Below, in pieces: positions 23,624-64,000 of a stretch of 64,000 nucleotides of DNA (position 1 is the stretch's first letter; each line of letters starts with the position of its first letter). Made by a program: the position numbers and the translations under genes. Source of the stretch: a virus (taxonomy: Duplodnaviria > Caudoviricetes); the IMG/VR virus record IMGVR_UViG_3300035425_000025, positions 10,103 to 74,102 of that record, one strand, 5' to 3'. A model generated the notes under the pieces. It worked only from the letters and a program-made list of their open reading frames with translations. It ran no database searches and was not told where the DNA came from.

Positions 23624-23663
23624 TCTGTACACAATGAAATTGTAATTTGAAGGGAGAAAATGC

Positions 23664-23867
23664 ATGAACACAATACCACGATACATGAAAGAATATGCCA
23701 ATGCACAGCGGAAAAGTTATGTAGATAATGAATTGATGCAGAAAAAGTATAAAGATGCAGCCGTGGAAATTATAGAGCGTATTTTGAAAAATACAGAACA
23801 TGGATTGATTACAATTAATGAAGGAATGAAAGCGTTATGTGATCCAATTGATGGAATAGTTTTGTAG
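23664..23867 (+). CDS. hypothetical protein
   Basis: GGGAG RBS. Confidence 0.65.
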   Translation: MNTIPRYMKEYANAQRKSYVDNELMQKKYKDAAVEIIERILKNTEHGLITINEGMKALCDPIDGIVL

Positions 23868-23955
23868 GCAGTTAGAACGGCTATGGAGAATATAAGGCTA
23901 TAGCCGTTTTATAGTGCTTATAAAGGCAAATAAAGTATTGTAAGGAGTAAAAGCA

Positions 23956-24381
23956 ATGAATGATATTAGGCTTAGTTATAAAATGGCTCTAAAACTTGAA
24001 ATGTATATGGAGAAAGAGATTGAAGAAATTGCTCAGGATTTTCAGAGTCTATCATGGAATTACAATGAAACATACGAGTATAAAAAAGATATGAAGGCAG
24101 GTAAAAGATCTTTTCATACTGACTATGGAATTGATAAAACATCTTATGATGACAGAGTAAAAAATTTAAGAATCCGTCAATATGAATTGTATCTTGAATT
24201 GGAAAATTTAATAAAAGATTGTAAAGAACAGAATGACGGAAAGCCATATCTTCCATATAGTATGCATTTAAAAAGGCAATTAATTTGTATCAATCCATCT
24301 TATGATAATGTAGCTGAGGAATTAAGAAGATTAAAAGGAACGGAGGAAAATCATGATGATAACATACAGTGGTGGATCTGA
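23956..24381 (+). CDS. hypothetical protein
   Basis: AAGGAG RBS. Confidence 0.7.
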   Translation: MNDIRLSYKMALKLEMYMEKEIEEIAQDFQSLSWNYNETYEYKKDMKAGKRSFHTDYGIDKTSYDDRVKNLRIRQYELYLELENLIKDCKEQNDGKPYLPYSMHLKRQLICINPSYDNVAEELRRLKGTEENHDDNIQWWI

Positions 24382-24529
24382 AGCAATCGAAACAGTTTAC
24401 ACATATGAAGAATGGCTTAAAGAATACAACCGCCAAGAAACGAAACGGAGAATTAGACAGAGGACAGAACATCTATATTATATAAAACAACGTCTATCTG
24501 GCACTATCATGGCAGCGATTGGAGGTTGA
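24353..24529 (+). CDS. hypothetical protein (58 aa), possibly 3'-truncated
   Basis: GGAGG RBS; ends within the RBS of the next gene. Confidence 0.55.
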   Translation: MMITYSGGSEAIETVYTYEEWLKEYNRQETKRRIRQRTEHLYYIKQRLSGTIMAAIGG

Positions 24530-24532
24530 AGA

Positions 24533-24721
24533 ATGGAAAATATTATAAACAAAATGTTAGAGCGTATCAATTTTAAAATCAGATATGCACAGGAAAATTT
24601 TACAGAGTGGAACGCTGCACACGATAGACGGATGGCAGAAATTGACGGTATGATTGATATGTTATCAATAGTTACTGGTAAAGAATATGTTATCACAGAA
24701 AATGGACTGGAAGAAAGATGA
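24533..24721 (+). CDS. hypothetical protein
   Basis: GGAGGT RBS. Confidence 0.7.
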   Translation: MENIINKMLERINFKIRYAQENFTEWNAAHDRRMAEIDGMIDMLSIVTGKEYVITENGLEER

Positions 24722-24724
24722 AAA

Positions 24725-24922
24725 TTGAGGTTAAAAATGAAAAAATACGGATTCAAAAAATTAAATAATGGATGGCGTTTTAAAATTGGTGGGACTTCTG
24801 GGGAACCGTTTGGAATTACACTAAGATATTTTAATAAATGTGGCTTCCGGCTTCTTATAAATTTCAATACGGATTTTCTTATAAATCTTTTTGGATTCAA
24901 TCAAAAAATCATTGGCGTTTAA
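24725..24922 (+). CDS. hypothetical protein
   Basis: ORF track. Confidence 0.5.
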   Translation: MRLKMKKYGFKKLNNGWRFKIGGTSGEPFGITLRYFNKCGFRLLINFNTDFLINLFGFNQKIIGV

Positions 24923-25058
24923 ATCGCATACAAGCCCATTTAAAGCCTTAAATCAGTGCATATACAAATATGTATGTGCGTTGCATTAAGTCCTTAAATA
25001 AGGCAAATAAACAGTATAGAAAGAGAAGTATAGAGCAAGCGACAAGTGGAAATGTTGC

Positions 25059-26000: not shown

Positions 26001-29000
26001 ATGAAAGCGGACATTTTTAGACATGGAATAAATTGGTTTATTGAATTTTATAACGAAAACGGCAATCATATGGAACATTGTGGAGAATGTATTTCAGGAT
26101 TTAATGACAATCCTTTAAAAAGAGCCGTTGAACGTGCAAAATGGTGGAATTGCAAGAGTATTTGTATAGTATTTTAAGGCGATGAAAGAATCATTTGGTC
26201 AGGAGGGAATGCGATGGAAACAAAAATAAAAGTATTGCATGATGATTATGGACACACAGCGACAATTTGTGAAAGAATGGCGCTGATGCATAAAGGGGAC
26301 GTAGAAAGAAGGAAAGTTTATATATTATCATTAACAGCGGATTATGATAATGATTTTATGTATTTTAAATCAGAATTTAGAAGTATGGATGCATTAAATG
26401 CAAAATTGAAGACTACAAGGGTAAAGTGGAAAGAAGAAGTAGCCAAAGGAGATTAATTATGGAAATGATAAATGAAATTATTGAAAAATGTAATAATTTA
26501 TGTGGAAATGAAAAATTGAGAGTAGAAGATTTTGGAAAGAATAAAGATTTAACTTTATATATACAAAAAGATTGTGACTACAATCCAGAAATTGATAAAG
26601 ATAAATGGAACATTGTCAGTATTACAACGGTGCAAAATTACACATATGTTGATGATACAGAAGATATATATGTTAATGATGGCTCTTTGTACAAAGAACT
26701 AGAAAGAATATATAACTATAAAGATTTTGAACTTTTATAAATGGAGATGGAAAAACTATGTGGAAAAATCAATATTGGGATAATGAAGGCGAATTGTTTA
26801 GAGATTTAGACAGAGAGGATGATGGAACACCAATTGAAGAAATGGGAAGGTATGAAATTGTATTTGATTTTTCAGAACAGAGGTATTATTGCTTTGTAAA
26901 TGCAATTAATATGGAAGAGGCTTTAGGTATCTTCTTCGCGAACCATGATAATGTAATGTATAAACATATTATAGAACACATAGAAATTTAGGCATGAAAA
27001 CATATTTGATTAGGAAGGAATCATGTTAGTATAATGAAAGCAATAATTAAAGAAACTCAAAATGGCTTTATAGAAGAAACAGTGATTGAAGATGTTTGTA
27101 TAGTAGAACATGGGTATTCATATGGAATAAATGGTAATTATGAATACTTAGAATTATGGAAAAATTCTGTTAGACCATATGTAAGAGTAAAATTGAATGG
27201 GAAAACAGAAATAATACTTAAATAAAGGATCGCTTTATCAAAGAGAGGGAAACGATTATGAATAAAAAATATTATGAGTTTGATAATAGACTGGAATTAA
27301 ATAGACGCTTAAAATATTGGTCAAATGCTTGTGGTGAATTGCATCATCATGGGGAATATGATTTAAAGGATGTTTCAGAACTTCCACAAGAATTACTGAG
27401 GGCATATAATGAACTTTGGGAACAAGGAAACGGTTGTTTTGAATACTTAGTTGAGTATGATGGAAAGTATTATATTGCTCTTATAAGTGAATTTGACAAT
27501 ACTTTTGCAGAAGATAGTAATGTATTAATGGAAGAACTGCATGAAATAGCTAAACAAAACGCGTTAGAATTATTTCATCAAGATTTATTCAAAGACACTA
27601 TTTTGATTATTGGAAAAGACACTGGTTTTAACGAGTGTCATGAGATTATTTTTCTTATTCCAGCAATGGAATCTAAAAATGTATATGATGAAATAGAGGA
27701 CACTATATATTTGAATATTTGGAAAATGGACAAATAGAATCGGAATTTTATCCGGAGAAAGGAAAAAATTATGAATAGATACACAATGGAAATAAAACAA
27801 AAAACAGGCGTGTGTTCATCAGAATTATGGAAATTTATTGTTGTTTCAGGTGATACGATTGAACTTGTTACATCTTTAATTCTTGAAGCACAAAAAGAAT
27901 TTAAATTTGAATCGCCTGTAGAACTTATGGATTATGTTTGTGATGTATATGGCTGGAAATGGGAAGATTTTGAGTATGATATTGAAATAGAAATGTAGCT
28001 TTGAATCTCGTATTTCAACAGGAGGTAAATAAAGTGGTGACATGTAATAAATGCAGAAGAGAATGTGAATACAGGAATAAAAAATTTAAAGATGTTTCCT
28101 TATACTGTGACACTCATTGTACCTATGATTTTAAGATAGAATGTGATAAAATAGCGACAGATGATTTTCGGAAAGTAATTCAAGAATTAAAAGATGGAAA
28201 TTTTTCTAATGCTGCCGTTACAGGAATATTAAAACAAGCGCAGTGCATTTTAAATGTTGCTGATAACATTATGGAGGAATGATAACTATGAGATTGGCTC
28301 TTAATCAGAAATATTTGTATTCAAACATAGCCAAGATTGGAAGACAATGTAAAAGAACAAAGAAAGAAGAAATTGTTACATATATCGGATCAGAAGATGA
28401 TAAAGAGATTTTTCAGAAAGAATCTGGAACAGAATTATTAGTACATAAATCTGATATTGATAAGTTTATAAAGGAAATTTCACGATGAAATGTACCTTTT
28501 CAGTCCTTTTAATTGGACACAAATAATAGTATAATGGAAACATAAACAAACAGATCAAAGTCCTACATAGTAGGCAGAAAGGTGGAATATATGGAAACTT
28601 TACTTGGATTGATTTTTCTCTTTTGTGTATTTGGATTACCAGCAATCATAAGAAATTACAAATTTGATAATAGTCTTCCTCCAGAAGGATATCAAACAGA
28701 CTGGGCAGCTATGAATCGTGATTTAGCGATGGGAAAATCAAAGACAGAAGTAATAAATAAATCAAACAGAGGAGAGTATTACGTTAAAAAGAAATAGAAT
28801 GAACGAAGAGTAGAAGCCACTGGAAAATAATCTGGTGGCTTTTATAGTGGAGAAAATAAGGAAAGAAGGACAAAATAGAATGGATAAGAATACATACACA
28901 CTTGGAAAGAAATTTGAATGTTGCGGAAAGACTATGGTAACTGTTATAATTAAAGGCAGAGCAGCTTGTGTTATGCCTGAGTTGGAATACAATAGGATTA

Positions 29001-30764
29001 TTGAGACTGAGCGGAAATATCTACAGAGAAATAATAAGAGGGTGGCATAATGGTTGTACGTGGGAAAATAAATGGGTTTATATCATGGAACGGCTGGTAT
29101 TATGGATATATAAAATTAAAGCGTGAAAATAAGTATTACAGATCAAAAAATGTTAGGTTTGATGATACTTGTGGTGGAACAGAAGAATGTACTGAAGAGC
29201 AATATCATGAAGCGGCAGAAAAATATGCTAAAATATTTAGATGAATGGATTATTTCATTGGAAAAGATTGGAGGAAAATATGGAAAAGTATAAGAGCATT
29301 GGAATTTATGAAAAAGGTGATGTGATTATGTGTGATAATATACTATTGGACGATGTTGTATGGGAAATAGCATTGATTCGAGAAATTAAGGGAGAACCAT
29401 TAGGAAGATTAAACTTGGTTAATGTTCCAGTTTATGACATAAATAGTGTAGATTGTGATATTGTTAATATATTTTCTGTAGAGGCTTGGAAAAAAATATA
29501 CGAAAGCGATTTGCTTCAAGATGCAGGATATGATGGCAGTATTTTAAATTGGTTAATTAAGCAGAAGAGAGAAATTCCTGAAGACCTTTTGGATTATGTG
29601 AGAGACCATTTTGAAGGTGACACAAGAAACCTTTTGTCTGATGCAGGTAATTTATCAAATGCCAAGTGGTTATATAAAAATGGAGCTATCTTAGAACCTG
29701 AAGGCCGCGAAAGTTCTGTAAAAGAATGGTGGGGAATGTGGCGGGATAAAAATCATGTTGAGATGTACGAATACTTTTTTGGTAAAAATGGGATATGTGC
29801 TTAATTGGATGAAATGATTGCTCTATTTAAAATATTTTGGAGGAAAACATTTATGAAAATTGTAATAGAGAATATGGAAGAATTATCTAAGCGTTTAAAA
29901 TATTTTTCTCAATTAAAAACAGATCAATTAAAAGAAATTTTATTATTGACATTTGAAGAAGCAAATTTTTTATTAAATGAAAAAGAAAATGGTGAGTATA
30001 CTTTTTATTTTGATGATGATAGTTGGATAAAACCAGAAAAAAATGGTATATATGTTAAAATTGGTTTTCGTAGTGACTTTATACAAGGGTTTAAGTTTCG
30101 TATGGACTTTATACAAGGTTTTATGTTTCGGGATTTTTTTTGTTGTAGTGTAAAATGGATTTATCTTTTTGATGAAAAAGGTAAATATGATATCGGTGAT
30201 TATGAGATTGAGTTTTCAAACATTTTAACTTCAAAATATAATGTATTAATGAAAAAATGGTTTGGAAAAGATTATATTATAGATTTGTTACATGCTCGTT
30301 TCCCATACGAATTTTCAGTAGATTCTTTGATTGGTTTAAAAGAAGAAACGTTAAATTATATATTCAATGATAGAAATGATAAAATGATGAATAGGGAAAA
30401 GAAAACATTAGATAAGAGGGATAATATATTTAAAAATATAAATGGACAAAGTATAGAAATGAAGTCTTTTTCAAACATTGAAACTGAATTATATAGAAAA
30501 ATAGATAATTTTAGAAATTCTGATTGTTTTATATTATATGTCAGTGATGAAGTGGAAAATACTAATATTATTAAATTTAATTTTACATTAGATGAAGATA
30601 GTGAAAAAGTATTAATAATAAAAACAAATTGTAATAAAAATGAAATTTTGTTAAGGGTAGGAAAGAACAGTGATTTTTTTGAAAATTGGCCCACATTGAA
30701 AGAAGAAATTATAAAATTTATTTCTGATTATATTCCATATGATAAATTTTATTATTTATGTTAG
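26001..30764 (+). other. run of ~15 short hypothetical accessory genes (26001, 26214, 26459, 26758, 27034, 27258, 27771, 28001, 28279, 28582, 28835, 29050, 29241, 29805)
   Basis: Co-oriented ORFs with RBS, many separated by the TRAAW-N6-TTTYA motif. Confidence 0.75.
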
Positions 30765-31017
30765 TATATAAATTTTTTTCTAAAAAAGCCACATTTGTTT
30801 ATGTGATTGAACACGACAAAAGTTTAAATGCTGCTATTGAAGAAGCTATTGGAAATATGGTCAGAGTGTAGGAGGCTGAAAGACTAAAGTATTATTTACA
30901 GTTAAAATAATAGATTCATCCAGTGTGTTGAGGAATGGAATCGTGTAAAAGCGATTCTTTTTCTTTACATATTATTTAGAATGTGATAACATATAAATAG
31001 AAAGGATGTGATAACAA

Positions 31018-31596: not shown

Positions 31597-32578
31597 AATA
31601 TATGATGAAATAGAAGTGTTCGATATGGTTAGAAAGGGAGAATTAAAAAGATACCCACATAGTTTCTGGAGTCTTGCTGATGGGAAAATTCGTGCCATTA
31701 ATATTTTAAAATATGTACTAGAAAATATTTTGAATTGGAATGATGAGGATATTGTTCAAAATTATGATGTAAATGTTTTTGGTAAATATAAAATTAGGGG
31801 GATATTGAGTCGTGTATTCAATAATTCTCCATTTGAAGCATTAAATGCTGTTTATCCCAACAAATTTAAAATATGGCAGTTTAGAGTTCCTAATAATTAT
31901 TGGAAAGAGAATGACCATGTTATAGAAGCTGTAAGGGATATTTATGAAAATAAATTAGGAATAAAAAGTATATCAGACATTTATAAAATTACGAATCATG
32001 AAGATATTTTTGAAAAGTATGGATTGGATGCTATACCTAGAGTTCAGAAAAAATCAATTCATGATGTTATAGGAATGGCATATGCTGGATTAGAAGAAGA
32101 AAAATTTTTAAAATCAAGCGCATCTCATTATGATTTGGATAAACAAATAGAAATATTTAAACAAAAAAATAGTGATGATAATTTGACTCATGATGATATA
32201 ATACAAATGACAGCAGAACAATTTAGAAATAGTGATTTGTTTTCGGTTGCTGTAAAAAAACATCATTTAGGAATTTATGAAATAGTTGAACTGGCATATC
32301 CGGGAGAGTATAAACCCTGGGAATTTTCTTATATTGGAAAGGGATTTTGGAAGAATGAAGAAAATATTGTGAAGGCAATTAAATGGTTATTTGAAGAAAG
32401 ATTGCATATTGATCCAAAAACTACAGTACGGATTTCAAAGGAAGATTTTTATAAAAATAGTCTTGGAAGTTTAATTACTTATGGGAATATTAATCGTATT
32501 GGAGTGAAAGAGTTAATAAGAATAGCTTATCCTGATTGCGATATTATTTTCAAGAAGAAAAAATTGGATAAAATCTAA
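31574..32578 (+). CDS. DUF4046-like protein
   Basis: Repeated F/YW...AIKWLFEERL units; YPNKFKIWQF and YPGEYKPWEF. Confidence 0.7.
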   Translation: MERLNGDEIYDEIEVFDMVRKGELKRYPHSFWSLADGKIRAINILKYVLENILNWNDEDIVQNYDVNVFGKYKIRGILSRVFNNSPFEALNAVYPNKFKIWQFRVPNNYWKENDHVIEAVRDIYENKLGIKSISDIYKITNHEDIFEKYGLDAIPRVQKKSIHDVIGMAYAGLEEEKFLKSSASHYDLDKQIEIFKQKNSDDNLTHDDIIQMTAEQFRNSDLFSVAVKKHHLGIYEIVELAYPGEYKPWEFSYIGKGFWKNEENIVKAIKWLFEERLHIDPKTTVRISKEDFYKNSLGSLITYGNINRIGVKELIRIAYPDCDIIFKKKKLDKI

Positions 32579-32605
32579 GTTTTAAGTATAAAATGGAGAA
32601 TAAGA

Positions 32606-33217
32606 ATGAGAGAAAGTAAATTATTTATTTCTTTGGGGATAGAATATGCTTCAAACTTATTCAAACAACCTAAAAATAGAAATATTTATGAAGATACAAA
32701 TTTTCCGCCAACGAAGCCAATTATGGGTGGATTTTGGGGATCTACGTATTTGAGGACTGGAAATTTTAAATCGTACTGGGAGAAATATATTTATGAGAAA
32801 CTGAATGTTAAAATGTTTGAACATAAACTTAATCATTCTTCTACAATATTTTCACTGAAAGAAAGTGCAAATATATTGTTTTTGGATAGCTTTCAAGATA
32901 TATGGATAGATATGAAATTGCAACAATCAAATTTACCACTTAGACTTGTTAAGATTGCAGGAAATGTGCCTAAACAATATGAAAATCATATGTTTTTGAA
33001 TTTTGAAGATTGTGTATATGATGCAATATATGTAAGTCAAAATTTTGTGGAATGTGTAGATTATGTATTGAAAGAGTTTGAACGAAGGATATTATCTAAT
33101 GAAAATGCGGATGATTTAGCTCAAGCATTATATTTTGCGGAGATGTTTGAGGATTGGAATGTGGATTCAGTATTAGTGTTAAATAAGGATATTATTAATG
33201 TGATTGATACTCAATAA
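32606..33217 (+). CDS. hypothetical protein (KPxxGGFW motif)
   Basis: ORF track. Confidence 0.65.
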   Translation: MRESKLFISLGIEYASNLFKQPKNRNIYEDTNFPPTKPIMGGFWGSTYLRTGNFKSYWEKYIYEKLNVKMFEHKLNHSSTIFSLKESANILFLDSFQDIWIDMKLQQSNLPLRLVKIAGNVPKQYENHMFLNFEDCVYDAIYVSQNFVECVDYVLKEFERRILSNENADDLAQALYFAEMFEDWNVDSVLVLNKDIINVIDTQ

Positions 33218-33282
33218 AATTAGATATTTAAGTATAAAATTAGTTATATGGACATATACTTTAAAGAATAGGGGGTGGTATA

Positions 33283-34692: not shown

Positions 34693-35656
34693 TTGGAGGA
34701 AAATAGAATGAAATCAATAAATATGGTAAAAGAATTAGGAATTGAACTAATGAAATTGAGTGACACCATTGATTCGCAAGAATTGATTATTGAAAGATAT
34801 CGGTTAAAGACAGCAATGTATAAGGCTTCTTTTTTCCATAGAAATGATTTAGCAATAAAAATTCAACAACAGATTATAGAAAATAATGATGCTGAAACAG
34901 GAGAATTTGATGGATTTTGTTATGCTTCATGGAGGTCAAATGCAATATATAGGACTTTGGAAGATCTGATTGAACAAAGAATAATTTCAAAAGAAGAATA
35001 TAATTTTTGTAACGAATAGCTTGAAATCATCGTTTCAACTCACGGAGGGAAAACAATGAGGAAAATACTCAAAAATAATAATAAATCAAAAAGGATCAAC
35101 GGAACAGCTAAAGGTAAAATCGGAGCACCACTAAATATAATGGATAAGTATATGAACAATTTAACTATAGGTGATGAGATTAAGTATGGCGAATATAAGG
35201 GGATTCTTTTATATAACCATTATTACGATCAGTATGGTGTGGCTTTAGATTATAGTATGTGGTACGGAAATGATAAATACAATATAGATTCATACGGAAA
35301 ATTTATTGAAATTCCTATGGATAATGGAGCGAGGATGGAGATTGAGTTGATAAATCATGCAAAATAAAATTGGAGGTGTATTTATGGAATATAAAATTAC
35401 TCATGTTTGGGATGACAGTATAAACAATGTTCATCATATCACTATTGAATATAATGGAAATTCTTACAGTGTTATTTTTGGAAGATATATCAATGGTGGA
35501 TTTTTTAGTGTCCCTAATTGGGGTGTTGGAGGAGAACTTGGACAGTTCTGTGATACATTTTGGAATGAGGAATCTTTATACAGAGTATTGAAAAGTAAAA
35601 GAGCAGCTAAAGTTATCGCATTAGCAATTGCAGAGTTTGGAGAGATGGAGGAATAA
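34693..35656 (+). other. three hypothetical genes (34693, 35056, 35357)
   Basis: ORF track; GGAGG RBSs. Confidence 0.7.
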
Positions 35657-50725: not shown

Positions 50726-50798
50726 TTAAATCAGTGTTTTAAGTACACTGTATTTTTTATACCCATTTTTAGGGAATTTTATAGGAAAGGAAGAAAAA

Positions 50799-51416: not shown

Positions 51417-51588
51417 AAGATGTATGACTGTAATGGCAACTGGCACTACATATGAGCAAAGAAGAGATGGTAAATCTTCAGCAAGAAGGTTTCACGAATG
51501 TAAAAGGTGTCATGATAAGGTTTATACAAAAGAACCAAATTTTCAGGAATGTATGAATAAGACATCAGATAGATGTAGAAATAAATAA
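51406..51588 (+). CDS. Zn-ribbon protein
   Basis: CKRC...CKRC. Confidence 0.65.
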   Translation: MLCKRCMTVMATGTTYEQRRDGKSSARRFHECKRCHDKVYTKEPNFQECMNKTSDRCRNK

Positions 51589-51615
51589 TACATAATTATT
51601 GAGAGGTGTATCAAT

Positions 51616-52194: not shown

Positions 52195-52199
52195 GAATC

Positions 52200-53651
52200 A
52201 TGAAATTATTAAGAGATAAAATTAAAAGAGATACATACATGGTATCTAAACTTTCTGGAATGATTAATAGGGGAGATTTAAGGGATAATCATCCTCAACA
52301 AAGAAAATCAGGGCAGTGGGATAATAATACTCGTGATAATTTCATTGTTACGGTTATTAAAAATGAAGATTTTGATCCAATTAAGATATGTGAGCAACTT
52401 ACAGATCAAGGTGTTGTACTTTGGCTAATTGATGGTCTTCAGCGTTCTACTACTATTGCTAATTATAAAGCTGGGAAATTCGCTTTGGGGAGGAAAATAG
52501 ACCCATATATAATTGAATACCAAGAGGCAATAAAGGGAAAAGATGGAGAGATTGTATATCAAAATGTTTCTTACGATTTACGTGGAAAGGGATATAAAGA
52601 ACTTCCAGATAAATTAAAAGAAGATTTTGATAACTGCCCTGTAGATATTGTAAAGCATTTGGATTGTACTGACGAAGAAGTTGGGCGACACATTGTCAGA
52701 TATAATTCTGGAAGACCTATGGTCACGGCTCAAAAAATATCTGCTTATATGCATAATACGGCAAAATATGTAAAAGAGTTATCTGGGCACGCATTCTTTA
52801 ATGATTGTGCAAATTATTCAGAAAATGCAGATAGAAATGGAACTGTGGATAAAGTTGTATCAGAGGCAATTATGGGATTGAATTTTTTTGATTCATGGAA
52901 TAAGCAGGCACAAAAAATTGGAAAACATTTAAATGATAACGCAACAAAAGAAATGTTTGATAATTTTGGCTCTTACTTAGACAGGCTGCTTAATGTAATA
53001 ACTCCTCAAACGGGGAAATTGTTCTCAACTAAAAATGCACTTATTTGGTTTATGCTCTTTGAAAGATTTAGTAAAAGAGAATTGAAAGATAATGTCTTCC
53101 AGATGTTTTTAGAGAATTATGAAGAATTTAAAAGAATAAAAGTAAAAATTGACCGTGAATATGAATTAGTAAAAGGGAGTGGGGAATACACAAATAATCT
53201 TTCCTTTGCAGAACTTGATGGATGTAAATCTACAAAAGATAAAGGGATAATCGAGGATAAATTACATATTTTAGAAGTTGTTATGGACGATTTTATACAA
53301 AATAATTGTATCAGTGAAGAAGGTGATATAGAAAATCAAACAATTACGGCAAAAGATATTATTAAAGAATATGTGAATGGCAATGTGGATGATGATGAAA
53401 TTGAGTTATATGAAATGATGACAGATGACTTTTCGGAAGTCATAGAAGACATTAATTCTGATTTTTTATCTGATGTAAATAGACCATCATTTGTTGCACT
53501 GGTTGGATATGCTGATCAATTAGGGAAGAGTGAATTATTAAATGAGTGGCTACCTAAGTTTGAAAAAGATCAGAATTTAATTATGAATCAAAAACGTAAT
53601 TTTATACATATGAAAAAGGATTTTGAGCAGTATCTTAAAAAATGTGCATAG
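52200..53651 (+). CDS. DUF262/ParB-like domain protein
   Basis: QRKSGQWD...LIDGLQRSTTI...RYNSG. Confidence 0.75.
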   Translation: MKLLRDKIKRDTYMVSKLSGMINRGDLRDNHPQQRKSGQWDNNTRDNFIVTVIKNEDFDPIKICEQLTDQGVVLWLIDGLQRSTTIANYKAGKFALGRKIDPYIIEYQEAIKGKDGEIVYQNVSYDLRGKGYKELPDKLKEDFDNCPVDIVKHLDCTDEEVGRHIVRYNSGRPMVTAQKISAYMHNTAKYVKELSGHAFFNDCANYSENADRNGTVDKVVSEAIMGLNFFDSWNKQAQKIGKHLNDNATKEMFDNFGSYLDRLLNVITPQTGKLFSTKNALIWFMLFERFSKRELKDNVFQMFLENYEEFKRIKVKIDREYELVKGSGEYTNNLSFAELDGCKSTKDKGIIEDKLHILEVVMDDFIQNNCISEEGDIENQTITAKDIIKEYVNGNVDDDEIELYEMMTDDFSEVIEDINSDFLSDVNRPSFVALVGYADQLGKSELLNEWLPKFEKDQNLIMNQKRNFIHMKKDFEQYLKKCA

Positions 53652-53793: not shown

Positions 53794-54345
53794 ATGAGAT
53801 ACATAAGTGATGATGGTAAGGTTTTTAACACAGAGCAGGAATGCTGTGAATATGAACGGGGAATTGAAGTAGAAAAAGTAAAAAGAGAAAAGTTAGAAAA
53901 GGAACGTCAGAGTAGGTTAGATACAATCAATAAGAGATACGAAGAGTTACAGACTCTGCTTTCTGAGTATGAGAAAGAGTATGGTGTAAGGCAAAGACCA
54001 TATGTTGCTCCATTTTATGAGATTTTAGACATGCTGTGTGGGTAATAAATGCCGCATTTCATTGTGGAAATTGGAGGAAATTTTATGAAGATATATTTTG
54101 GAATTGATTGTGCTCCTGGTGGTATCAGACCTAATACATATGCTGAGAGAGTTTTTGAGAAATTAGGGATTAATTCAATAGAAGCATATAATAAATGTTT
54201 TGGTGCGTGGGAGTGGGAAGTAGATGTTGATGATAATTTTGATTATGAATCTTTCAAAACGTGGATGAAGGCAGAAATGGATGAACTATATAAAGCAGGT
54301 CGTATTCGTGGTGCGCAATGGGATAAAGTAGAAACGGAGAAATAG
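53794..54345 (+). other. two hypothetical genes (53794, 54049/54085)
   Basis: ORF track; RBSs. Confidence 0.65.
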
Positions 54346-54346: not shown

Positions 54347-54458
54347 ATGAGTGATAAAAAGATGAAAAGAGATGATTTAGGGAAATCGTATGAAAACATT
54401 TTATGAGAAGATTCCTAATACAAGATTAATGAGAAGGAATATTTTAAGAATTGAGTAA
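54347..54458 (+). pseudogene. 5' remnant of a Thg1-like gene with 1-nt insertion
   Basis: MKRDDLG/NRMKTFYEKIPNTRLMRR across GGG-AAA-T; stop overlaps LAGLIDADG start. Confidence 0.65.
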
Positions 54459-55527
54459 AAGAATTATTTTGGACAAAAATGAGCTGCACCAAAAATATGT
54501 AGTGGAGAAATTATCACAAGCTAAAACTGCAAAATACTTTAATTGTTCTATTGACACTGTTGTAAGAAACTTAAAAGATTATGGGATAAAAGCTCATAAA
54601 CAAGGATCTTGGCGTGTTTCAAATAGAGTAGAATTGTCAGAATATCAAAGAAATAAGTTATGTGGTGCACTATTAGGCGATGGTAGTCTGATAAAGTGTA
54701 AGAACGGTATAAATGCACAGTTTACATATGTTTCAAAATCAAAGCAACATGTTGAGTTTGTATGTAAGGATTTTATAGATTATTCATATAAAGAGGGAAT
54801 AAGAAAGTATGAATATATTGATAAAAGAACAAAGAAGCAGTATTTACGGTATACGTTTAGAACGATTACAGATCAAGGATTTACTGCTGAATATTATAGG
54901 TGGTATAAAAATGGAATTAAGCATATTCCAGAAGATTTAATTTTAAATCCCTTAATATGTTTAATTTGGTATATAGGAGATGGTAGCATATGCAACTCTT
55001 CTAAAAATAATAGTCAATGTATAAAAATTGCCACTAATTGTTTTGATAAAAACGAGCAAGAAAGAATTTTACTTCCTCAATTATCTGATTTTGGTGCAAG
55101 ATTATGTAAGGCTGGCAAAAATAAATCAACTAACAAATATCAATATGCAATTTACATTCCTAAAAAGAAAATGGAACAGTTCTTTGAATTTATTGGAGAA
55201 TGTCCATTTCCTGATTATAAATATAAATGGGATTATAAAGAGAAATTTTATCCATCTTATGAAGATTATTATGAAGAATGGAAAAAGTTGTATTTAAATG
55301 GAATGGGTTACACGCATATTGCTAGATTATATGGAGCAGATAATACAACAGTTCTAAAATATTTAAGAAAAGTTGGAATATATAAGAGATTTGAGGGATA
55401 CAAGCAATTTTATAAGGAATGGGAAGATATGTTTATTTCTGGAATGAAATACTATGATATAGCCAAAAAATATAATTGCTGTTCTCAAACCGTATTACAT
55501 CATTTAAGACAAGTAAATTTATTTTAG
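54451..55527 (+). CDS. LAGLIDADG homing endonuclease with flanking HTH domains
   Basis: LCGALLGDGSL and IWYIGDGS motifs; KIATNCF. Confidence 0.85.
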   Translation: MSKRIILDKNELHQKYVVEKLSQAKTAKYFNCSIDTVVRNLKDYGIKAHKQGSWRVSNRVELSEYQRNKLCGALLGDGSLIKCKNGINAQFTYVSKSKQHVEFVCKDFIDYSYKEGIRKYEYIDKRTKKQYLRYTFRTITDQGFTAEYYRWYKNGIKHIPEDLILNPLICLIWYIGDGSICNSSKNNSQCIKIATNCFDKNEQERILLPQLSDFGARLCKAGKNKSTNKYQYAIYIPKKKMEQFFEFIGECPFPDYKYKWDYKEKFYPSYEDYYEEWKKLYLNGMGYTHIARLYGADNTTVLKYLRKVGIYKRFEGYKQFYKEWEDMFISGMKYYDIAKKYNCCSQTVLHHLRQVNLF

Positions 55528-55548: not shown

Positions 55549-56365
55549 ATGGACAATAGTAATATTGCAAAACGAATGAAAAAATATGAAGCAGTACATA
55601 AAAGTGTATTGATGAATCGTATGCCAGTCATCCTTCGTCTTTGACGGCAAGGCATTTCATACGTTCACCAGAGGATTTAAAAGACCATTTGATGATGTTC
55701 TTATTATGACAATGCAGGAAACAGCAAAATATCTCTGTGAAAATATTCAGGGATGTCAATTAGCGTATGTTCAATCGGACGAAATCTCTTTGTTGTTAAT
55801 TGATTACCAGAGATTTGAAACATCGGCATGGTTTGATTATGAAATGCAGAAAATGTGTAGTATTTCTGCAAGTATGGCAACTATGGCGTTCAATAAGATT
55901 TTCCGTGACATGGTAGGAGAATTGCACATTAAGGGATCGTTGGAAGAAGAGTATTCTTGCATTCTATATAGGGCAGCACAGAAAGGAGCCATGTTTGATG
56001 CCAGAGTCTTTAATATTCCAAAAGAAGAAACATGTAATTACTTCTATTGGCGACAACTTGACGCTTCTAGGAATAGTATTCAGATGGTAGGACAAGCAAA
56101 TTTCAGTCATAAGGAGTTACAGTTTAAATCTTGTAATGACATTCAGGATATGCTCATGACTCAGAAAGGTATTAATTGGAATGACTTTCCTACATATCAG
56201 AAGCGTGGGAGCTGCGTTTTAAAGGAAAATTATCTTGATGCCACACCAGAATCTACAGATTCAGAAACGATTAGAAACCGTTGGATCATTGATAAAAATA
56301 TTCCGATTTTTAAGGGTGAAAACAGAGAATATATTGAACGGTTTGTGAATGTAGGAGAGGAGTAG
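55549..56365 (+). pseudogene. thg1: tRNA-His guanylyltransferase (Thg1-like), +1 frameshift at 55639-55645 (CTT TGA C)
   Basis: PVILRL / DGKAFHTFTRGFKRPFD...YVQSDEISLL...AMFDARVF...YFYWRQLDASRNS; 271 aa if shifted. Confidence 0.85.
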
Positions 56366-56367: not shown

Positions 56368-57005
56368 ATGAGTCTTACAATGTTACAGTTTAAAGAAGTA
56401 GCGAAAGATATTTTGGATTTAGAAGAAAAGAAAAATCTGATACTTTCCAACTTTGAGGAATCAACATGTGAATTGTCTAAGTGTTTTCATTGGATTATGG
56501 AAGCAGAATTAGATGGTAGAAATCATACATGTCTTACTGTTGATACATGTCCAGAGTTATATGCAAAAGAATTAGAGAATATGGGATTTGTTATAGAAGA
56601 GCAAAGAAATGTTTTTGATACTCTTTGCGGATATGATATTAAATGGCGATGAAACTAACATTTTAAGTTGAGAAAGGATAAAAAATAATGGGAAGGTTAA
56701 AAGATTTTATTGGAGAATCAAACTCAGAAATAGTGAATCATCTCGTAAAAGCAGGTTTTAAATATGATACTTTTGTGTGTGGTGGCAATTATGGTTATCA
56801 AAAAGGATTTAAAGTAGATAGTGGGTTATATTACACATATATACATTGCGATTTAGAAAGTAGAAAATTAAATGTTTATAAGGAATATAATTGTGGTGGA
56901 GAAGTTGCATCATATAGTTGTGATATTCCTGATCGTTTGATAGAAAATGATGATGTTAATGAGTTCATTGAGTGGATTGATGAAGAAACAGAGTACTATT
57001 TATAA
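56368..57005 (+). other. two hypothetical genes (56368, 56688)
   Basis: ORF track; RBSs. Confidence 0.7.
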
Positions 57006-57530: not shown

Positions 57531-57559
57531 ATGAAAAATTCATTTTATGGAGATGAAAT

Positions 57560-57874
57560 ATGATTTTATTGTTAGGTAAAAATGATTTGGTAGAAAATTA
57601 TGCGGATTCTACATTACATATTGATATGAGAAACGATATTGTATATTACCCAAATAAAGAAACACATCATACAGAATTGTATAAATATGTCAATATTGCA
57701 AAAGAAGAAAAACCTCCTGTAATTACAACGCAGAATTTAGAAATGATAAATGTTTTATTAGATTCTGACTTAGATTTTTCTGTATATACAGTTTATGAAA
57801 ATAATAAAGTCAGAAAAATGTCAAAACAGGAAGCAATAAATGCAAGTAGGAATTTAGGAATAGAACTACGATGA
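57560..57874 (+). CDS. hypothetical protein
   Basis: ORF track. Confidence 0.65.
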   Translation: MILLLGKNDLVENYADSTLHIDMRNDIVYYPNKETHHTELYKYVNIAKEEKPPVITTQNLEMINVLLDSDLDFSVYTVYENNKVRKMSKQEAINASRNLGIELR

Positions 57875-57915
57875 ATATTTGATTTCAACTTAGTAAAGAA
57901 AGGAAAAAATAAAAT

Positions 57916-58318: not shown

Positions 58319-58720
58319 ATGGATAACAACATTCCAGTATATGATTATGAAGATGCAATCAACTTTATTGCAGAAAGATGCGATATCAGTAAGGATATCA
58401 TTGAAAAGGTTTTAACGTTGGAAGAGGATTACATGCGCAGCATTGGAATTATAAGTGATGAAGAACAGCCATAGAATGAAACTTTCAAGTGGATAGAGGT
58501 GATAGTAGTGGAATGTCCGTATTGCGGAGAAGAATTAAGGTGTATTGATTATTATGGACATACAAGGTATTCAGAACATTATTGGATATATCCTCATAGT
58601 TGGATAGAAAAAGAAGGCGATATTTATCAATGTCAGAATGAGGAATGTGAGAGTCAGGTATTCAATGGACATTTTTACGATCGCTGTGATGGTGATTTAA
58701 GAGAAGGGTATCCATGTTGA
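58319..58720 (+). other. two small genes (58319-58474; 58499-58720 Zn-ribbon)
   Basis: RBSs; CPYCG...C...C. Confidence 0.6.
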
Positions 58721-59497: not shown

Positions 59498-59587
59498 ATA
59501 TTTATCCTCCTTTTTATTATTATAGCAGGAAAAGGAGTAAGTGGATACAGAAAATGGAAAGAAATAAAACACGAGTTTCAAAGAAAA

Positions 59588-60298
59588 GTGGAGAAATGTA
59601 TGAAAATAAAAATTGAATATTGTTTCTATACAGATGGTGATTATAGTCTAAGAAATTATAATAATTTTGGTTGTACTGGTAGAGAAATTGAAATAGAAGA
59701 TGAATATTTTGATTATATTGGAGTTGTCAATTTAGATAATGATGAAACTTGGAGATGTAAGCATGATGCCAAAAACTTTTTGACACAGTTACTATGTGAC
59801 GGAATTCATATTTCATATACACATTATTGGTTAATGGAAGAATTTTATAATATTATTGAATCTTTAATAAATTTTATAGATAAAAATGATTCTGGAGAGA
59901 TTTGTAAAAACTTATCAGGAAATTATGAAGGAACAAGAATCGATGTATATATCTACAATTAGTATATAAAATTTCCGTTTTAACTGGAGGTGAGGCTTAT
60001 GGAAAAAGCGATACATTTTTATGAGTATGATCCTGATATGCCTATTTTCCATTGTTGGGAAACAACAAAAAATCAATTGAGAATGGGTAAAAGTACGATA
60101 AATACTATGCAAATGGGTTTTTTGCATACAAGACTTTTTGATCTTGGGTACAGGATTTTTATTCATGAATCTGAAAATGAGTTCTATGAAATTGTTCTCG
60201 GTTGTGAAAATGAAAGAACAAATAGAGAAATAAAAATGGGACATAACTTATTTAAAATGTGGGAATCTGGTGAATTTAATAGGAGATTGAAAAGATGA
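59588..60298 (+). other. two hypothetical genes (59588, 59990)
   Basis: ORF track. Confidence 0.65.
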
Positions 60299-60738: not shown

Positions 60739-60747
60739 GATTCTTGA

Positions 60748-61056
60748 ATGAGGAAACTTATGAAATTATTTAAAAACTTTAAAACAAAACGACAACTTAG
60801 AGAAGAAATTGCGGAATTAAAAGGTATGTTATGTCCACAAAGACCACAGATACATACTATAGATCGAGAAATACAGAAGGTATCGTCTGATATAGTCTTT
60901 GATAATAATGAGTCGATAGAACATATAAAAGAACAAATTGCGCATGGAATGGTTGAATTCTTAAAACCGCTTATAGAGTGGGATATTGAAGACGATAAAA
61001 CCAATCCATTTAAGAAACGAATACGAGGTAATATATATTTGGCAAAGAAAAAGTAG
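60748..61056 (+). CDS. hypothetical protein
   Basis: ORF track. Confidence 0.65.
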   Translation: MRKLMKLFKNFKTKRQLREEIAELKGMLCPQRPQIHTIDREIQKVSSDIVFDNNESIEHIKEQIAHGMVEFLKPLIEWDIEDDKTNPFKKRIRGNIYLAKKK

Positions 61057-61100
61057 CAATAAAACGAAGGTTTCATTGATAGAAGATTGGAGGTGAAAAA

Positions 61101-62318
61101 ATAAAAGTAGAAAGGCGTGAGCAAATAATCATACGAAAGAATCATCCAAAATTCAAAGTTATAGATCAACAGTGTTTTCATTCTAAGAATCTTTACAATG
61201 AAGCAAATTATGAAATAAGACAGAAATTCATAAATAACGGAGAATATATATCATATAACAAAATGAATTTTGAATTTAAGACACACGAAAATTACAAACT
61301 TACATTCAGTCAACCAGCGAATTGTACTCTAAGAGTTTTAGATAAAAACTGGAAATCCTATTTCAGAGCAATAAAAGACTGGAAGAATAATCCGTCAAAA
61401 TATCTTGGTATGCCTAAGTTGCCAAAGTATTTAAAAAAGGACGGTAGGTTTCCTTGGATGATTCCCAATAATCAGTTGGTCTATGACTATGAAAAAGGAA
61501 CGGTTTATATCAGGAACAGATTACTTAATGATTATGAATGGAAATGTCGCTGCCTTGGCAGAATCATTCAAGTCAGATTTATTCCAAAAGGTTCCTGTTA
61601 TGTAATGGAAATTGTCTATGAAACAGAAGTTCCAGATGTAAAAACAGAAAGCAATCGCATAGCAAGTATTGATTTGGGTGTAGATAATCTTGTAACTATG
61701 ACAAATAATATCGGTTTGAATCCAATTATTATTAACGGCAAGGGAATCAAAAGTATCAATCAATACTATAACAAACGATTGGCGAAAGAAAAATCTTTAT
61801 TGAAAATACGTCATGGAAAAGACTGGTCTAAGAAACTGGATTCTATTACATTTAAAAGATATCAGAGGATCAAGAACTATATGCACAATGCAAGTGCTTG
61901 TGTAGTGAAGTGGTGTGCAGAAAATGATATTGACACTTTGGTAGTAGGCAAGAATAAGGAATGGAAACAGAGTATAGATATGGGTAAACAAAGCAATCAG
62001 AAGTTTGTGAGTATTCCTTATCAGATGTTGTTACAGCAACTCAAATATAAATGTGAAAATGTTGGAATTAAATATATTGAAACTGAGGAGAGTTATTCTT
62101 CAGGAACAAGTTTCTTAGATGGAGAAGAAACTATTAAACAGAATTACGATAAGTCAAGACGGATAGAAAGAGGGTTGTTTAGAAGTAACTCTGGATTGCT
62201 TATCAATAGTGATGTAAACGGATCATTACAAATTATGATGAAGGTATTCCCAAATGCGTTCAATGAGCGATATGGGATAGAGGGTGTTCTAACCCCTATA
62301 GTTATAAATGCAGCGTAA
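61101..62318 (+). mobile_element. tnpB: solo TnpB RNA-guided nuclease (IS200/IS605-type, no TnpA)
   Basis: SIDLGVDNL, LVVGKN...ETEESYSS, NSDVNGSLQI; frame open upstream to ATA 61101 after GGAGGTG. Confidence 0.9.
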
Positions 62319-62442
62319 GTTGTGTGATTTACTATGAATGTCAAAAAGGCAATAGAAGAAACATTTGATTGTTACAGCTCCTCAACTCTCCTGTACAATA
62401 TCATTATGGGATTTAGGGGCATTATGTAAAGGTAAAATGAAA

Positions 62443-63243
62443 TGGAAAATCAGAACAAGGAATTATATTTTGCGAAAACAGTTATTGGAGCAATTGAAAA
62501 TGTGAAAGTGCCAATGCTCATGTATGAAGAAGAAAAAATGGTAGTTAAAAAGGCGTTGCAGATGTATATTGACAAAATTGAAATGGATGCTCGATGTAAA
62601 TAATCTTAGAGGGATTGTGGAGGGAAAGGGAAATATGGAGAGATTGACAAAAGCTGAATTAGTAAATGGATTTCCTGTATGCTATCCGAATAATTGTTCT
62701 GGATTGCCGGAATTTGTGACAAAGGGGAATCCATACAGGAATATAGTGGAAAGGCTAAAAGCGTATGAAGACCTTGAGGAACAAGGGAAACTGCTGAAAC
62801 TAGAAGATAAGTACCAAAAAATAATGATAGGTCAGGAAATTTTCGTTGTAGAAGATGGTGATGTAAAGCCTAGAAAGATATGCCGTATAAATGAGTGGTG
62901 GAACGATTATCATGGATTTCAGGGAGAATATGCCGCCATTCCATCAAAATGTTTTGGTTCGTGGGAATTCAAATATGAGGATTTCGGCAAGACGGTCTTC
63001 CTCGCCAGAGAAGAAGCCGAAGCCACATTGAAAGAATTAAGGGATAAGAAAGGATAGGGAAATATGGATTTTAAAATACCATTACATATTGCGAAAGAAA
63101 TAAAAAAATATTGCGAACAGCAAGATTTTGGTGGTGATGAAAATAAGGAAACTTGCAGGTATTGTGTTTTTTGTGGCAGGCATGGGGATTGTATGTTGCA
63201 TGATGATAAAATGGGATTTCCGAGCAACTGGAAGACTCCGTAA
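62443..63243 (+). other. three hypothetical genes (62443, 62636, 63064)
   Basis: RBSs; VERLKAYEDLEEQGKLL...DFGKTVFLAREEAEA is a common phage motif. Confidence 0.65.
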
Positions 63244-63274
63244 TTGGCGGGAAAATAGAGCGAGGTAAGGAAAA

Positions 63275-63545
63275 ATGAGCGGTGATTTGATTAGCAGAAG
63301 TGCATTGATGCAGTCTTTGAGAAACAATGTGTTGGTTGATGTGACACCAAATCTGGAACAGGCGATTGAAGAACAGCCTATGACGTGGATAAGGTTGTGG
63401 AAGGATTGCGGTTAGAATTAGGACTTGCTGATAAAGAAAAGGAACGATGCGCAAAAGAAAATCCATTACAATTTGATGAAGCAAAAGGTTATGCCAGAGG
63501 AGTGGCTGTTGCATTAGAAGTAGTCAAATCCGGCGGCGTTGAATG
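63275..63545 (+). pseudogene. phage protein frameshifted near 63378 (likely loss of one 7-bp ACAGCCT unit)
   Basis: DLISRSAL...IEEQP / DVDKVVEGL...VVKSGGVE in a different frame. Confidence 0.6.
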
Positions 63546-63920
63546 AAACTAGCATGCGTATGGGCAGTTATAATACGGCTGACAAAAAGCAGAATAAGAA
63601 ACAAAATGAAATTAGAACATTGTATATCCTATATGGAAGAGTATAGGTGTGATTTGACAAAAGAATTAGACGAAGTTTCAGGTATTTCAAGAAACAATCA
63701 CTACGATATGTTTTATCATTACATATTGGCAAATAAATGGTGCAAAAATCAAAAGTGCCTTGCTATTAGAGTGCCTGGTGGTACGGTTGGAGGTATTCAT
63801 TTTGATGATAATAATGTCATTACAAAGATAATACTTGATACAGATTATGTAGTAAAAACATATCCAAGTAATATAAATGAATTAATTCAGAAATTTATTG
63901 GAGAAACAATAGAGTGGTAA
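63543..63920 (+). CDS. hypothetical protein
   Basis: ORF track; start probably 63606. Confidence 0.65.
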   Translation: MKLACVWAVIIRLTKSRIRNKMKLEHCISYMEEYRCDLTKELDEVSGISRNNHYDMFYHYILANKWCKNQKCLAIRVPGGTVGGIHFDDNNVITKIILDTDYVVKTYPSNINELIQKFIGETIEW

Positions 63921-64000
63921 TAAAATAAATCTTTCAAAGAAATAGAAATAGTAACTGAACGTCCATTAAGCCCCCAGCAGAGCTGGGGAGAATAGAGTGA

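Follow-up and report, generated by a model that had tools for sequence, protein, structure and literature searches.

We analyzed a 64,000-nucleotide stretch of virus DNA (hereafter, the window) from the IMG/VR record IMGVR_UViG_3300035425_000025, along which a short spaced palindrome, consisting of two 5-bp arms around a 6-bp center (T[GA]AA[AT]-N6-TTT[CT]A), recurs at the junctions between small accessory genes. The motif is a duplex-DNA site with two-fold symmetry, as is characteristic of binding by a protein dimer, and its best conserved part is the center, which is specific to each position, or slot, in the gene order. With a probability of about 0.5, we read the copies as crossover sites that form an ordered, slot-specific array, exchange taking place between sites with equal centers. 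A literature search of limited reach found no published description of these junction sites.

The source record is a 74.1-kb virus fragment with a G+C content of ~31%, of which the window covers bases 10103-74102. The genes of the window include those for a YonO-type single-chain RNA polymerase of 919 aa (Pfam RdRP, 2.3e-10), ParB, a sigma factor, and 2 tyrosine recombinases; the polymerase is 42% identical to YonO of SPbeta across 97% of its length. Small genes make up a long plus-strand arm (~18-64 kb), which is headed by 3 perfect sigma-A consensus promoters (18793, 19903, and 21645) and carries genes for ArdA, Fic, FRG, AbiH, DUF262, TnpB, a MazF-like protein, and others. As in Spbetavirus-like phages, the YonO-type single-chain RNA polymerase is combined with 2 divergent arms. 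The source element is thus part of a large SPbeta-like temperate phage from gut Firmicutes: its relatives are prophages of Lachnospiraceae, that of Lachnospiraceae bacterium A4 having a 98%-identical RNA polymerase, and a relative that is complete, G005, measures 128.6 kb and has terminal repeats. Searches of phage and plasmid collections yielded no near-identical match to the window. Below, G000 denotes the genome of the window, and the relatives compared with it are G001, G003, G005, A4, C64, and L183-L188.

A palindrome of fixed spacing recurs at gene junctions

A first-pass annotation of the window had reported about 30 copies of a 5+6+5-bp palindrome, and these proved to be real: the 32 listed coordinates comprise 17 exact copies, 10 with 1 mismatch, and 5 with 2 (24719 and 26183) or 3 (26995, 27223, and 58748) mismatches. 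The site at 28486 reads better as TGAAA-N7-TTTCA, and 3 sites (22570, 30903, and 54046) were absent from that list. The 6-bp spacer, described there as nearly fixed, is the sole enriched spacing. In the whole 74-kb record, TRAAA-N6-TTTYA occurs in 20 exact copies versus 0-7 for other spacers within the range 0-15, and intergenic copies with at most 1 mismatch number 53 at N6 versus ~19 at other spacers. The enrichment over shuffled controls that the annotation had called for is likewise present: using dinucleotide-preserving shuffles, 21 copies of T[GA]AA[AT]-N6-TTT[CT]A were observed between 22001 and 64000 versus 4.31±2.23 in shuffled sequence (maximum 11), and the 7,054 noncoding bases of the same interval contain 15 copies versus 0.56±0.69 (maximum 3), a ~27-fold excess. 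When every combination of 5-mer arm and spacer was scanned without bias, TGAAA with a 6-bp spacer came out as the top palindrome in G000, G005, and the A4 prophage.

The motif is present in 21 of the 31 same-strand gaps of 20-80 nt in the arm, where it sits between a stop codon and the next Shine-Dalgarno sequence, at 13-33 nt from the start codon. The upstream stop codon is overlapped by ~13 of the 32 copies, and in the others it lies 0-11 nt upstream or within the spacer; because most copies lack such an overlap, the motif is not a stop-codon artifact, as had been argued. Its reported absence from the left arm and from the block at 47.5-54 kb is mostly right, except for exact copies at 1673, 6676, 16366, 49192, and 54046. 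The cargo named for the bounded segments was confirmed by Pfam (ArdA, Fic, FRG, AbiH, GmrSD_N/DUF262, TnpB, and a minus-strand response regulator). In the complete relative G005, the motif is restricted to the small-gene arm, with few copies in the polymerase/structural arm, and the RNA-polymerase neighborhoods of 80 relatives displayed no motif enrichment. Motif-poor G003 and C64 revealed no alternative palindrome of the kind expected for heterotypic sites; their copies are simply more degenerate.

Six-base centers mark slots in a conserved order

The spacer sequence had been treated as merely variable, whereas comparison across genomes showed that the centers are slot-specific and are the most informative part of the site. 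Among 11 arms, 233 pairs of sites in different genomes have identical 6-bp centers versus 62 in a reversed-spacer control, and when only exact-arm sites are considered, the numbers are 68 and 0, respectively. The common centers are collinear in nearly all cases (G000-G001, 9/9; G000-G003, 10/10; G000-A4, 16/18; G000-L184, 9/9; A4-L188, 9/9; L186-L187, 13/13), with P<0.001 for each genome pair against 1000 permutations. Both flanking proteins are unrelated (blastp E>1e-3) in 89 same-center pairs, and a related neighbor was found in 18 only. The slot between the centers GGATTA and TAATAG measures 1661, 918, 1392, and 429 bp in 4 genomes; such several-fold differences in length indicate that slot contents have been replaced, not merely diverged. 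Between sites with the same address, agreement of the arms is near random (0.54 vs 0.48 at R1 and 0.45 vs 0.40 at Y14), the left arm at address GGATTA, for instance, being TGAAT, GAAAA, or TAGAA, and the identical stretch is limited to ~8-12 bp, that is, the 6-bp center plus AAW/WTT.

Homology between relatives breaks at the motif

The first-pass annotation had suggested looking for the breakpoints of gene gain and loss among relatives inside the motif, and comparison of homology blocks located them at the motif edges. Across all arm pairs, 20 of the 41 block starts near a motif cluster at -4..+2 and 21 of the 38 block ends near a motif at +13..+18. Control arms with other spacings produced no such peaks, and Shine-Dalgarno sequences in the same gaps account for ~15 block ends versus 41 at motif edges. 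The pattern can be illustrated by a 98.7%-identical block of G001, which crosses TGAAT-ctcgta-TTTCA (28002) and ends 3 nt on, the next block beginning at base 1 of the 28486 site.

Given one conserved neighbor, homology breaks at 87 of 92 motif junctions (95%) versus 63 of 94 non-motif gaps (67%; Fisher 1.5e-6) and 142 of 213 short gaps (Fisher vs motif junctions 4e-8), the P values being approximate because the counts pool related genome pairs. An unconditioned junction test, in which blocks ended in 27% of motif gaps versus 29% of non-motif gaps, is a crude one that ignores whether either neighbor is conserved, hence the conditional linkage test. The claim that the copies delimit single-gene units held for the most part: exchange units are bounded by them, and 23 of the 41 motif-bounded arm units contain a single gene.

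The sites of the window are listed below; block edges are given as offsets, as in the counts above.

1673-1688: perfect copy TGAAA-ttggag-TTTCA, 7 bp beyond the stop of the left-arm integrase gene
22570-22585: junction site TAAAA-caatta-TTTGA with 1 arm mismatch; center at the collinear slot in G001 and A4, where the called flanking proteins are unrelated and the motif-only match is ~26 nt
23635-23650: junction site TGAAA-ttgtaa-TTTGA, after ardA; A4 homology block begins at -3; center common to G001, G005, and A4
27735-27750: junction site TAGAA-tcggaa-TTTTA; center common to G001, G003, and A4, with unrelated flanks in G003 and A4
28002-28017: junction site TGAAT-ctcgta-TTTCA; the 98.7%-identical G001 block stops 3 nt past the right arm; center common to G001, G003, and A4
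28486-28502: variant site TGAAA-N7-TTTCA; G001 homology block begins exactly at its first base
29242-29257: junction site TGAAT-ggatta-TTTCA; GGATTA found in 5 genomes with unrelated flanks and differing arms
30903-30918: site TAAAA-taatag-ATTCA; TAATAG found in 5 genomes in collinear order
32569-32584: junction site TAAAA-tctaag-TTTTA, with the upstream stop codon within the spacer; center common to G001, G005, A4, and L188, with unrelated flanks in all
33215-33230: site TAAAA-ttagat-ATTTA; TTAGAT comes after TCTAAG also in G001, A4, and L188
35022-35037: junction site TGAAA-tcatcg-TTTCA, an exact match; center common to G001 and L188
36685-36700: junction site TAAAA-gattga-TTTTA; center common to G003, A4, and C64
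37528-37543: junction site TGAAA-acttga-TTTTA; L183 block stops at +13; center common to A4 and L183
38385-38400: junction site TAAAT-gtctga-TTTTA, an exact consensus match
39157-39172: junction site TAGAA-ttcgat-TTTCA; center common to A4 and L183
41311-41326: junction site TGAAA-tccggt-TTTCA; L184/L185 block stops at +16; center common to G003, A4, and L184
42127-42142: junction site TGAAA-tgttgc-TTTCA; L183 and L187 blocks begin at base 0; center found in 5 genomes
43978-43993: junction site TGAAA-ggctgg-TTTTA; center common to G003 and L184, with unrelated flanks
44159-44174: junction site TGAAA-ttctag-TTTGA, before fic; L183 block begins at -1; center common to G003, L183, and L184
45241-45256: junction site TGAAT-gttcag-CTTTA; A4 block stops at +16; center common to A4 and L183
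46177-46192: junction site TAAAA-gtgaaa-TTTAA with 1 mismatch, between the FRG and AbiH genes; GTGAAA found in 5 other genomes
47218-47233: site TAAAA-taacta-TTTTG, after abiH; center common to G003
54046-54061: junction site TAAAT-gccgca-TTTCA, an exact match at a gene junction
56650-56665: junction site TGAAA-ctaaca-TTTTA; A4 block stops at +17; center common to G003 and A4
57532-57547: junction site TGAAA-aattca-TTTTA; G003 block stops at +15
57872-57887: junction site TGAAT-atttga-TTTCA; center common to L184, with unrelated flanks
58472-58487: junction site TAGAA-tgaaac-TTTCA; A4 and C64 blocks stop at +17 and +18, respectively
59565-59580: site TAAAA-cacgag-TTTCA; CACGAG found in 5 genomes with differing arms
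59967-59982: junction site TAAAA-tttccg-TTTTA; center common to A4 and L184
61060-61075: junction site TAAAA-cgaagg-TTTCA, before tnpB; center common to L184 and L188
63921-63936: junction site TAAAA-taaatc-TTTCA; A4 block stops at +13

The same class of sites in SPbeta and phi3T

The genome of SPbeta contains 36 copies of TRAAA-N6-TTTYA, nearly all of them TAAAA...TTTTA, versus 8 at N7 and 3 in a backwards control, and phi3T contains 34 copies versus 5 in the backwards control. Of the 12 copies between 81.5 and 100 kb of SPbeta, 10 are located at annotated gene junctions, where they often overlap the stop codon. When the lists were compared by eye, 25 phi3T centers were equal to SPbeta centers and came in the same order, and several slots differ in length between the 2 phages, that between GTAAAA and AGACTG measuring 1514 versus 637 bp. 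The SPbeta site at 99498-99513 (NC_001884.1) reads TAAAA-TGATAA-TTTTA, and its reverse complement occupies the collinear position in phi3T (KY030782.1, 89340-89355), which hints that the site or the segment has been inverted in one of the phages. No motif copy was found in the MrpR-bound yonP promoter region of SPbeta, between 57148 and 69424, and the junction copies are distinct from the SPBRE sites to which MrpR binds. The system of junction sites is therefore family-wide in SPbeta-like phages, and the presence of the same site class in SPbeta and phi3T makes the idea testable genetically in Bacillus subtilis.

The motif is a dyad on duplex DNA

For the sequence logo and covariation analysis, we used 151 nonredundant copies from 12 arms. 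Information is confined to positions -2..+18, with the consensus (G)-W-T-R-A-A-W-N6-W-T-T-Y-A-W, and no -35 or -10 box was found at any fixed distance from the motif. No covariation links the arms: at positions 1/14, Watson-Crick pairs number 78 versus 79.0 expected under independence, A·C and G·T combinations are as common as independence predicts, and no pair within the spacer covaries, with a smaller set in agreement. The absence of arm covariation therefore argues against an RNA hairpin, a folded attC-like site, and a hairpin promoter, whereas a sigma-70-type or other asymmetric promoter is ruled out by the symmetry of the motif and the lack of flanking information. An expectation-maximization motif search of upstream regions recovered the Shine-Dalgarno sequence only.

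A site for a host global regulator is unlikely because the A4 host chromosome is not enriched in the motif outside the prophage, TGAAA-N6-TTTCA being about as frequent there as the N7 version. A presence/absence search for a binding protein across the genomes identified no arm protein that tracks motif strength. A divergent pair of HTH_3 genes (cI/cro-like) at 47264-47809, with an intervening TTGACA-N17-TACAAT promoter and 2 GTATTC-N5-GAATAC palindromes, is probably the immunity switch; this region was not conserved in the relatives. As the pair has its own operators, we rejected the motif as the immunity operator.

Recombinase genes of the window

Two tyrosine recombinase genes, both with generic Phage_integrase Pfam matches only, and the gene abutting one of them are relevant to the search for an enzyme.

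35357-35656 (+): DUF6618 gene abutting the recombinase gene (Pfam 2.9e-38); 76% identical in G005, again beside a recombinase homolog
35659-36519 (+): arm tyrosine recombinase of 286 aa, without the N-terminal core-binding domain, a candidate enzyme (Pfam Phage_integrase 2.8e-10, residues 19-211)
1696-2709 (-): left-arm tyrosine integrase with a SAM-like N-terminal domain (Pfam)

Residues R50, K79, H171, R174, H201, and Y210 of the arm recombinase are invariant in 6 homologs with 23-73% identity, and the protein, which is a candidate enzyme only, is predicted to be catalytically intact. The lack of a core-binding domain would fit arms of only 5-7 bp. Homologs were found in most relatives (G001, G003, G005, A4, G013, G014, and L186). 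In a fold search, the matches were generic for Xer/Int, with XerA, lambda Int, and XerH ranking above IntI and the SroF repressor of phi3T at rank 46. We considered whether the protein is an MrpR/YopR ortholog and found no support for this, given no sequence match to solved structures, generic fold matches, and no BLASTP similarity to YopP or YopR. The left-arm integrase is probably the prophage integrase, and no close homolog of it was found in G005 or C64. The first-pass annotation had named both recombinases for assays of the acting enzyme, and both are at most candidates; the arm recombinase, though intact, was undetected in some of the motif-bearing relatives.

Proposed slot-by-slot exchange and its alternatives

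The motif has the geometry of core-type tyrosine recombinase sites, in which 2 inverted arms flank an overlap of 6-8 bp. Under the strand-swapping rule that holds for Cre, Flp, lambda Int, and Xer, the enzyme binds to degenerate arms, and an overlap of 6-8 bp has to be the same in both partners. The phage pattern is as this rule predicts, in that the presumed recombining partners also appear to have identical overlaps. The first-pass annotation had read the copies as recombination or capture sites of an integron-like cassette-shuffling system, with a phage-wide operator as the alternative. Core-site geometry indeed explains the data better than the operator does, the center being exact while the arms drift, but the integron and shuffling part of the proposal falls away: neither a folded attC-like site nor an attI-like capture site is present, an IntI-type enzyme is lacking, and slot order is conserved between genomes, which argues against capture at a single site. 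Judged from the sequences, the pattern is one of allelic exchange slot by slot, not of cassette capture in arbitrary order.

In the mechanism that we propose, ~30-50 ordered sites along the early/accessory arm would have common degenerate arms (W-TRAAW ... WTTYA-W) and a separate 6-bp center for each slot. When 2 related phage genomes meet, for example, those of a superinfecting phage and a resident prophage, a tyrosine-type site-specific recombinase would bind the short arms and test the 6-bp overlap for identity; strand exchange would take place only between copies with the same center, with one or more genes to one side of the site being replaced by the content of the partner at that slot. 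Since only equal centers would recombine, gene order would be kept. Single crossovers between co-resident relatives would make viable chimeras, and the differing centers within one genome would prevent deletions between neighboring copies. The enzyme could be the arm recombinase (35659-36519) and its homologs, another phage recombinase, or host XerC/D. More broadly, and at somewhat less than even odds, SPbeta-like phages of Firmicutes may possess a natural cassette-exchange system, an ordered set of 30-50 mutually incompatible sites with short common arms and slot-specific overlaps, through which a tyrosine-type recombinase would swap accessory, defense, and counter-defense genes slot by slot between co-resident phages while blocking internal deletions.

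The usual explanation of phage mosaicism is either illegitimate recombination, which is rare and whose products are sifted by selection, or homology within conserved linkers. Slot-by-slot exchange, if true, would amount to dedicated trading of anti-defense, defense, and toxin-antitoxin genes (ArdA, Fic, AbiH, FRG, DUF262, and others) among temperate phages of gut Lachnospiraceae, with the junction center acting as a position label conserved across unrelated cargo; if enzyme-driven, the junctions would constitute a ready-made natural set of orthogonal recombination sites.

Several observations weigh against slot-by-slot exchange by such a recombinase. The arms of lox, FRT, and dif sites are 11-13 bp long, and those of the motif are shorter, at 5-7 bp, with no information outside -2..+18. 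The arm recombinase was not detected in G012, which is 92% complete and motif-rich, or in the C64 region searched, and it lacks BLASTP similarity to YopP or YopR of SPbeta. The sole same-spacer pair within the window (49031/49190) keeps one orientation in all 8 contigs. Compared with 36-43 kb of the window, a few homologous genes are non-collinear in L183 and L186-L188, some homologs in these 4 genomes being reordered or lying across the sigma/DUF262 core, and gene order is therefore not absolutely fixed. Finally, the counts pool genome pairs with common ancestry, which makes the P values approximate, and the gene calls used in the comparisons were crude ones of our own making.

The exchange could also proceed without a dedicated enzyme, by linker-type homologous or micro-homology recombination through host RecA or a phage annealing protein, the motif being a junction element of other primary use and the sole sequence common to unrelated neighbors. 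We regard this explanation as unlikely, if a serious contender. A precedent is provided by the promoter-early stem-loops (PeSLs) of T4-type phages, conserved intergenic regulatory cassettes at which ORFans are swapped and for which mini-circles have been detected (PMC2839356). The about equal use of both motif edges (20 starts vs 21 ends), the failure to find a recombinase in all motif-bearing genomes, which also counts against the enzyme-driven exchange that we prefer, and the frequent breaks at non-motif gene junctions (67%) all fit such a process. However, the stretch of identity, at ~8-12 bp, is below the need of known homologous recombination systems, and mismatches at the outer arm positions are no rarer than expected by chance. 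Nor does homologous recombination give a reason for an exact center with tolerated arm mismatches, and the micro-homology of Shine-Dalgarno sequences, which are of similar length and lie in the same gaps, is used much less (~15 ends vs 41). The conserved PeSL interval, at ~100 bp, is far longer than the stretch in question (PMC2839356).

Two further alternatives assign the motif a role in expression. That it is a distributed, stoperator-like operator, at which a dimeric phage regulator silences or times the early arm and of which the recombination pattern is a by-product, seems to us quite improbable. A protein dimer that binds duplex DNA is indeed indicated by two-fold symmetry without base-pair covariation, the 5-6-5 geometry is reminiscent of ACAA-N6-TTGT in 434-type helix-turn-helix operators, 4 HTH_3 proteins are encoded in the window, and the sites are restricted to a single transcription arm, at the head of which lie perfect sigma-A promoters. 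Operators of this kind have precedents in stoperators, with the L5 repressor acting at 20-30 of them (PMC6550527), and in SPBRE/MrpR of SPbeta (PMC10516654). Yet an operator gives no reason for an exact slot-specific center across unrelated flanks while the contacted arms drift; the same arms occur in Bacillus and Lachnospiraceae phages with YonO proteins only 42% identical, whereas immunity operators diversify; the cI/cro-like pair uses GTATTC-N5-GAATAC; none of the arm proteins is distributed among the genomes in step with motif strength; and no motif copy between 57148 and 69424 of SPbeta falls in the MrpR-bound yonP promoter region, this interval being devoid of the motif. Still less credible, and in our view very improbable, is a hairpin in RNA or single-stranded DNA, whether an intercistronic stem-loop involved in mRNA processing or translational control or an attC-like folded site. 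Its appeal lies in the location of the site on a long polycistronic arm, where it follows a stop codon and precedes the next Shine-Dalgarno sequence, and in the ribozyme-like elements of the same arm (twister-P1, E=9.8e-9), but no pair covaries in the 151 sites, the distance to the start codon is variable (13-33 nt), and our own nearest-neighbor estimate puts the free energy of a 5-bp A/U-rich stem with a 6-nt loop near 0.

Other features of the window

One further element resembles the motif.

49031-49208: 178-bp element closed by 2 perfect 19-bp inverted repeats, motif-like and with the same center (CCATAA / TTATGG); conserved in A4, L184/L185, and 4 more contigs

The two repeats have changed in concert in L184, with T>C on the left and A>G on the right. 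The element has one orientation in all 8 contigs in which it was found, which provides no evidence that it is an active invertible switch; it may represent a structured RNA, closed by a long stem, or a seldom-used inversion switch.

The neighboring block at 49245-53651, which is kept in all arms examined, includes genes for a MazF-like toxin (49647-49997), the sigma factor (51616-52194), and a 483-aa DUF262/ParB-like protein (52200-53651). Upstream of the MazF-like toxin gene are an XRE gene (49245-49466, minus strand), which was matched in G003 and C64 only, and direct and inverted repeats of the GATTATACAATAT type. Farther along the arm, a LAGLIDADG_2 homing-endonuclease-like gene with helix-turn-helix domains (54451-55527) is followed by a Thg1-like gene of the tRNA-His guanylyltransferase family (55706-56365). 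Four phage tRNA genes are present, 2 on the minus strand of the left arm (608-689 and 6879-6953) and 2 in tandem in the early arm (50577-50647 and 50652-50725). A match to the type-P1 twister ribozyme at 22957-23025 (plus strand), ~60 nt upstream of ardA, scores 48.4 bits (E=9.8e-9), which is below the Rfam gathering score of 67.2, and weak hammerhead-like matches at 19158-19230 (plus strand; RAGATH-1 hammerhead, E=0.44; Hammerhead_1, E=0.38) are unconvincing by Rfam.

Comparison with known systems

Integron cassettes resemble the phage units in being promoterless single genes, each followed by an imperfect palindrome, in one orientation, with strong promoters and a tyrosine recombinase gene nearby. 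The attC sites of integrons measure 57-141 bp and are recognized as folded single strands, and cassettes are captured at one attI, their order reflecting the history of capture. The phage motif differs in being 16 bp long, with a 5-bp stem that lacks arm covariation and an order conserved between genomes. No IntI-type enzyme was found, judged from the Pfam matches of both window recombinases and the fold search, and no attI was found.

The stoperators of Cluster A mycobacteriophages are likewise short motifs with 10-30 copies in short intergenic spaces of a temperate phage, but they are asymmetric 13-mers oriented with transcription that differ between heteroimmune phages (PMC6550527), whereas the phage motif is the same from Bacillus to Lachnospiraceae phages. 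SPBRE of SPbeta is bound by MrpR, a protein with a tyrosine-recombinase fold, and is found in ~10 promoter regions as a sequence set unlike the 36 junction sites of that phage (PMC10516654). Slot-specific centers are absent from both stoperators and SPBRE.

The systems nearest to the motif are heterospecific recombinase sites, pdif modules, and PeSLs. The PeSLs are intergenic repeats in hyperplastic regions of T4-type phages that flank single small open reading frames of unknown function (PMC2839356, PMC4122927); where close relatives differ by an insertion, deletion, or replacement, the breakpoints fall at these repeats (PMC2839356). Breakpoints within the repeat are found in the phage motif as well. 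PeSLs, however, are ~100-bp regulatory cassettes, consisting of a sigma-70 promoter and a terminator hairpin, that recombine by homology (PMC2839356), whereas the motif carries no -35/-10 information, forms no stable stem, is 16-18 bp long, and has a slot-specific center.

The pdif sites (dif modules) of Acinetobacter plasmids, on which XerC/XerD act, are also numerous and short and flank accessory modules, including Fic and toxin-antitoxin genes; the modules occur in different replicons, and recombination between sites on different plasmids has been observed (PMC6449649). Each pdif site is 28 bp long (11-6-11) and resembles chromosomal dif, the sites alternate in orientation, and the modules move to new contexts (PMC6449649). 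The phage motif differs in its length of 16-18 bp, in the lack of enrichment in the host chromosome, and in having a center that denotes a fixed slot in a conserved order.

The sets of heterospecific lox/FRT sites used with core-type tyrosine recombinases share with the motif the inverted arms around a 6-8 bp overlap. In such sets, identical overlaps are needed and the arms are tolerant; different overlaps do not cross-react, so that a segment can be exchanged without rearrangement. To our knowledge, heterospecific sets are an engineering device with no described natural system. Their arms are 11-13 bp long versus 5-7 bp in the phage motif, and the phage has 30-50 different centers in one natural genome. 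The likeness between the two lies in the exact centers, drifting arms, and conserved order of the phage sites.

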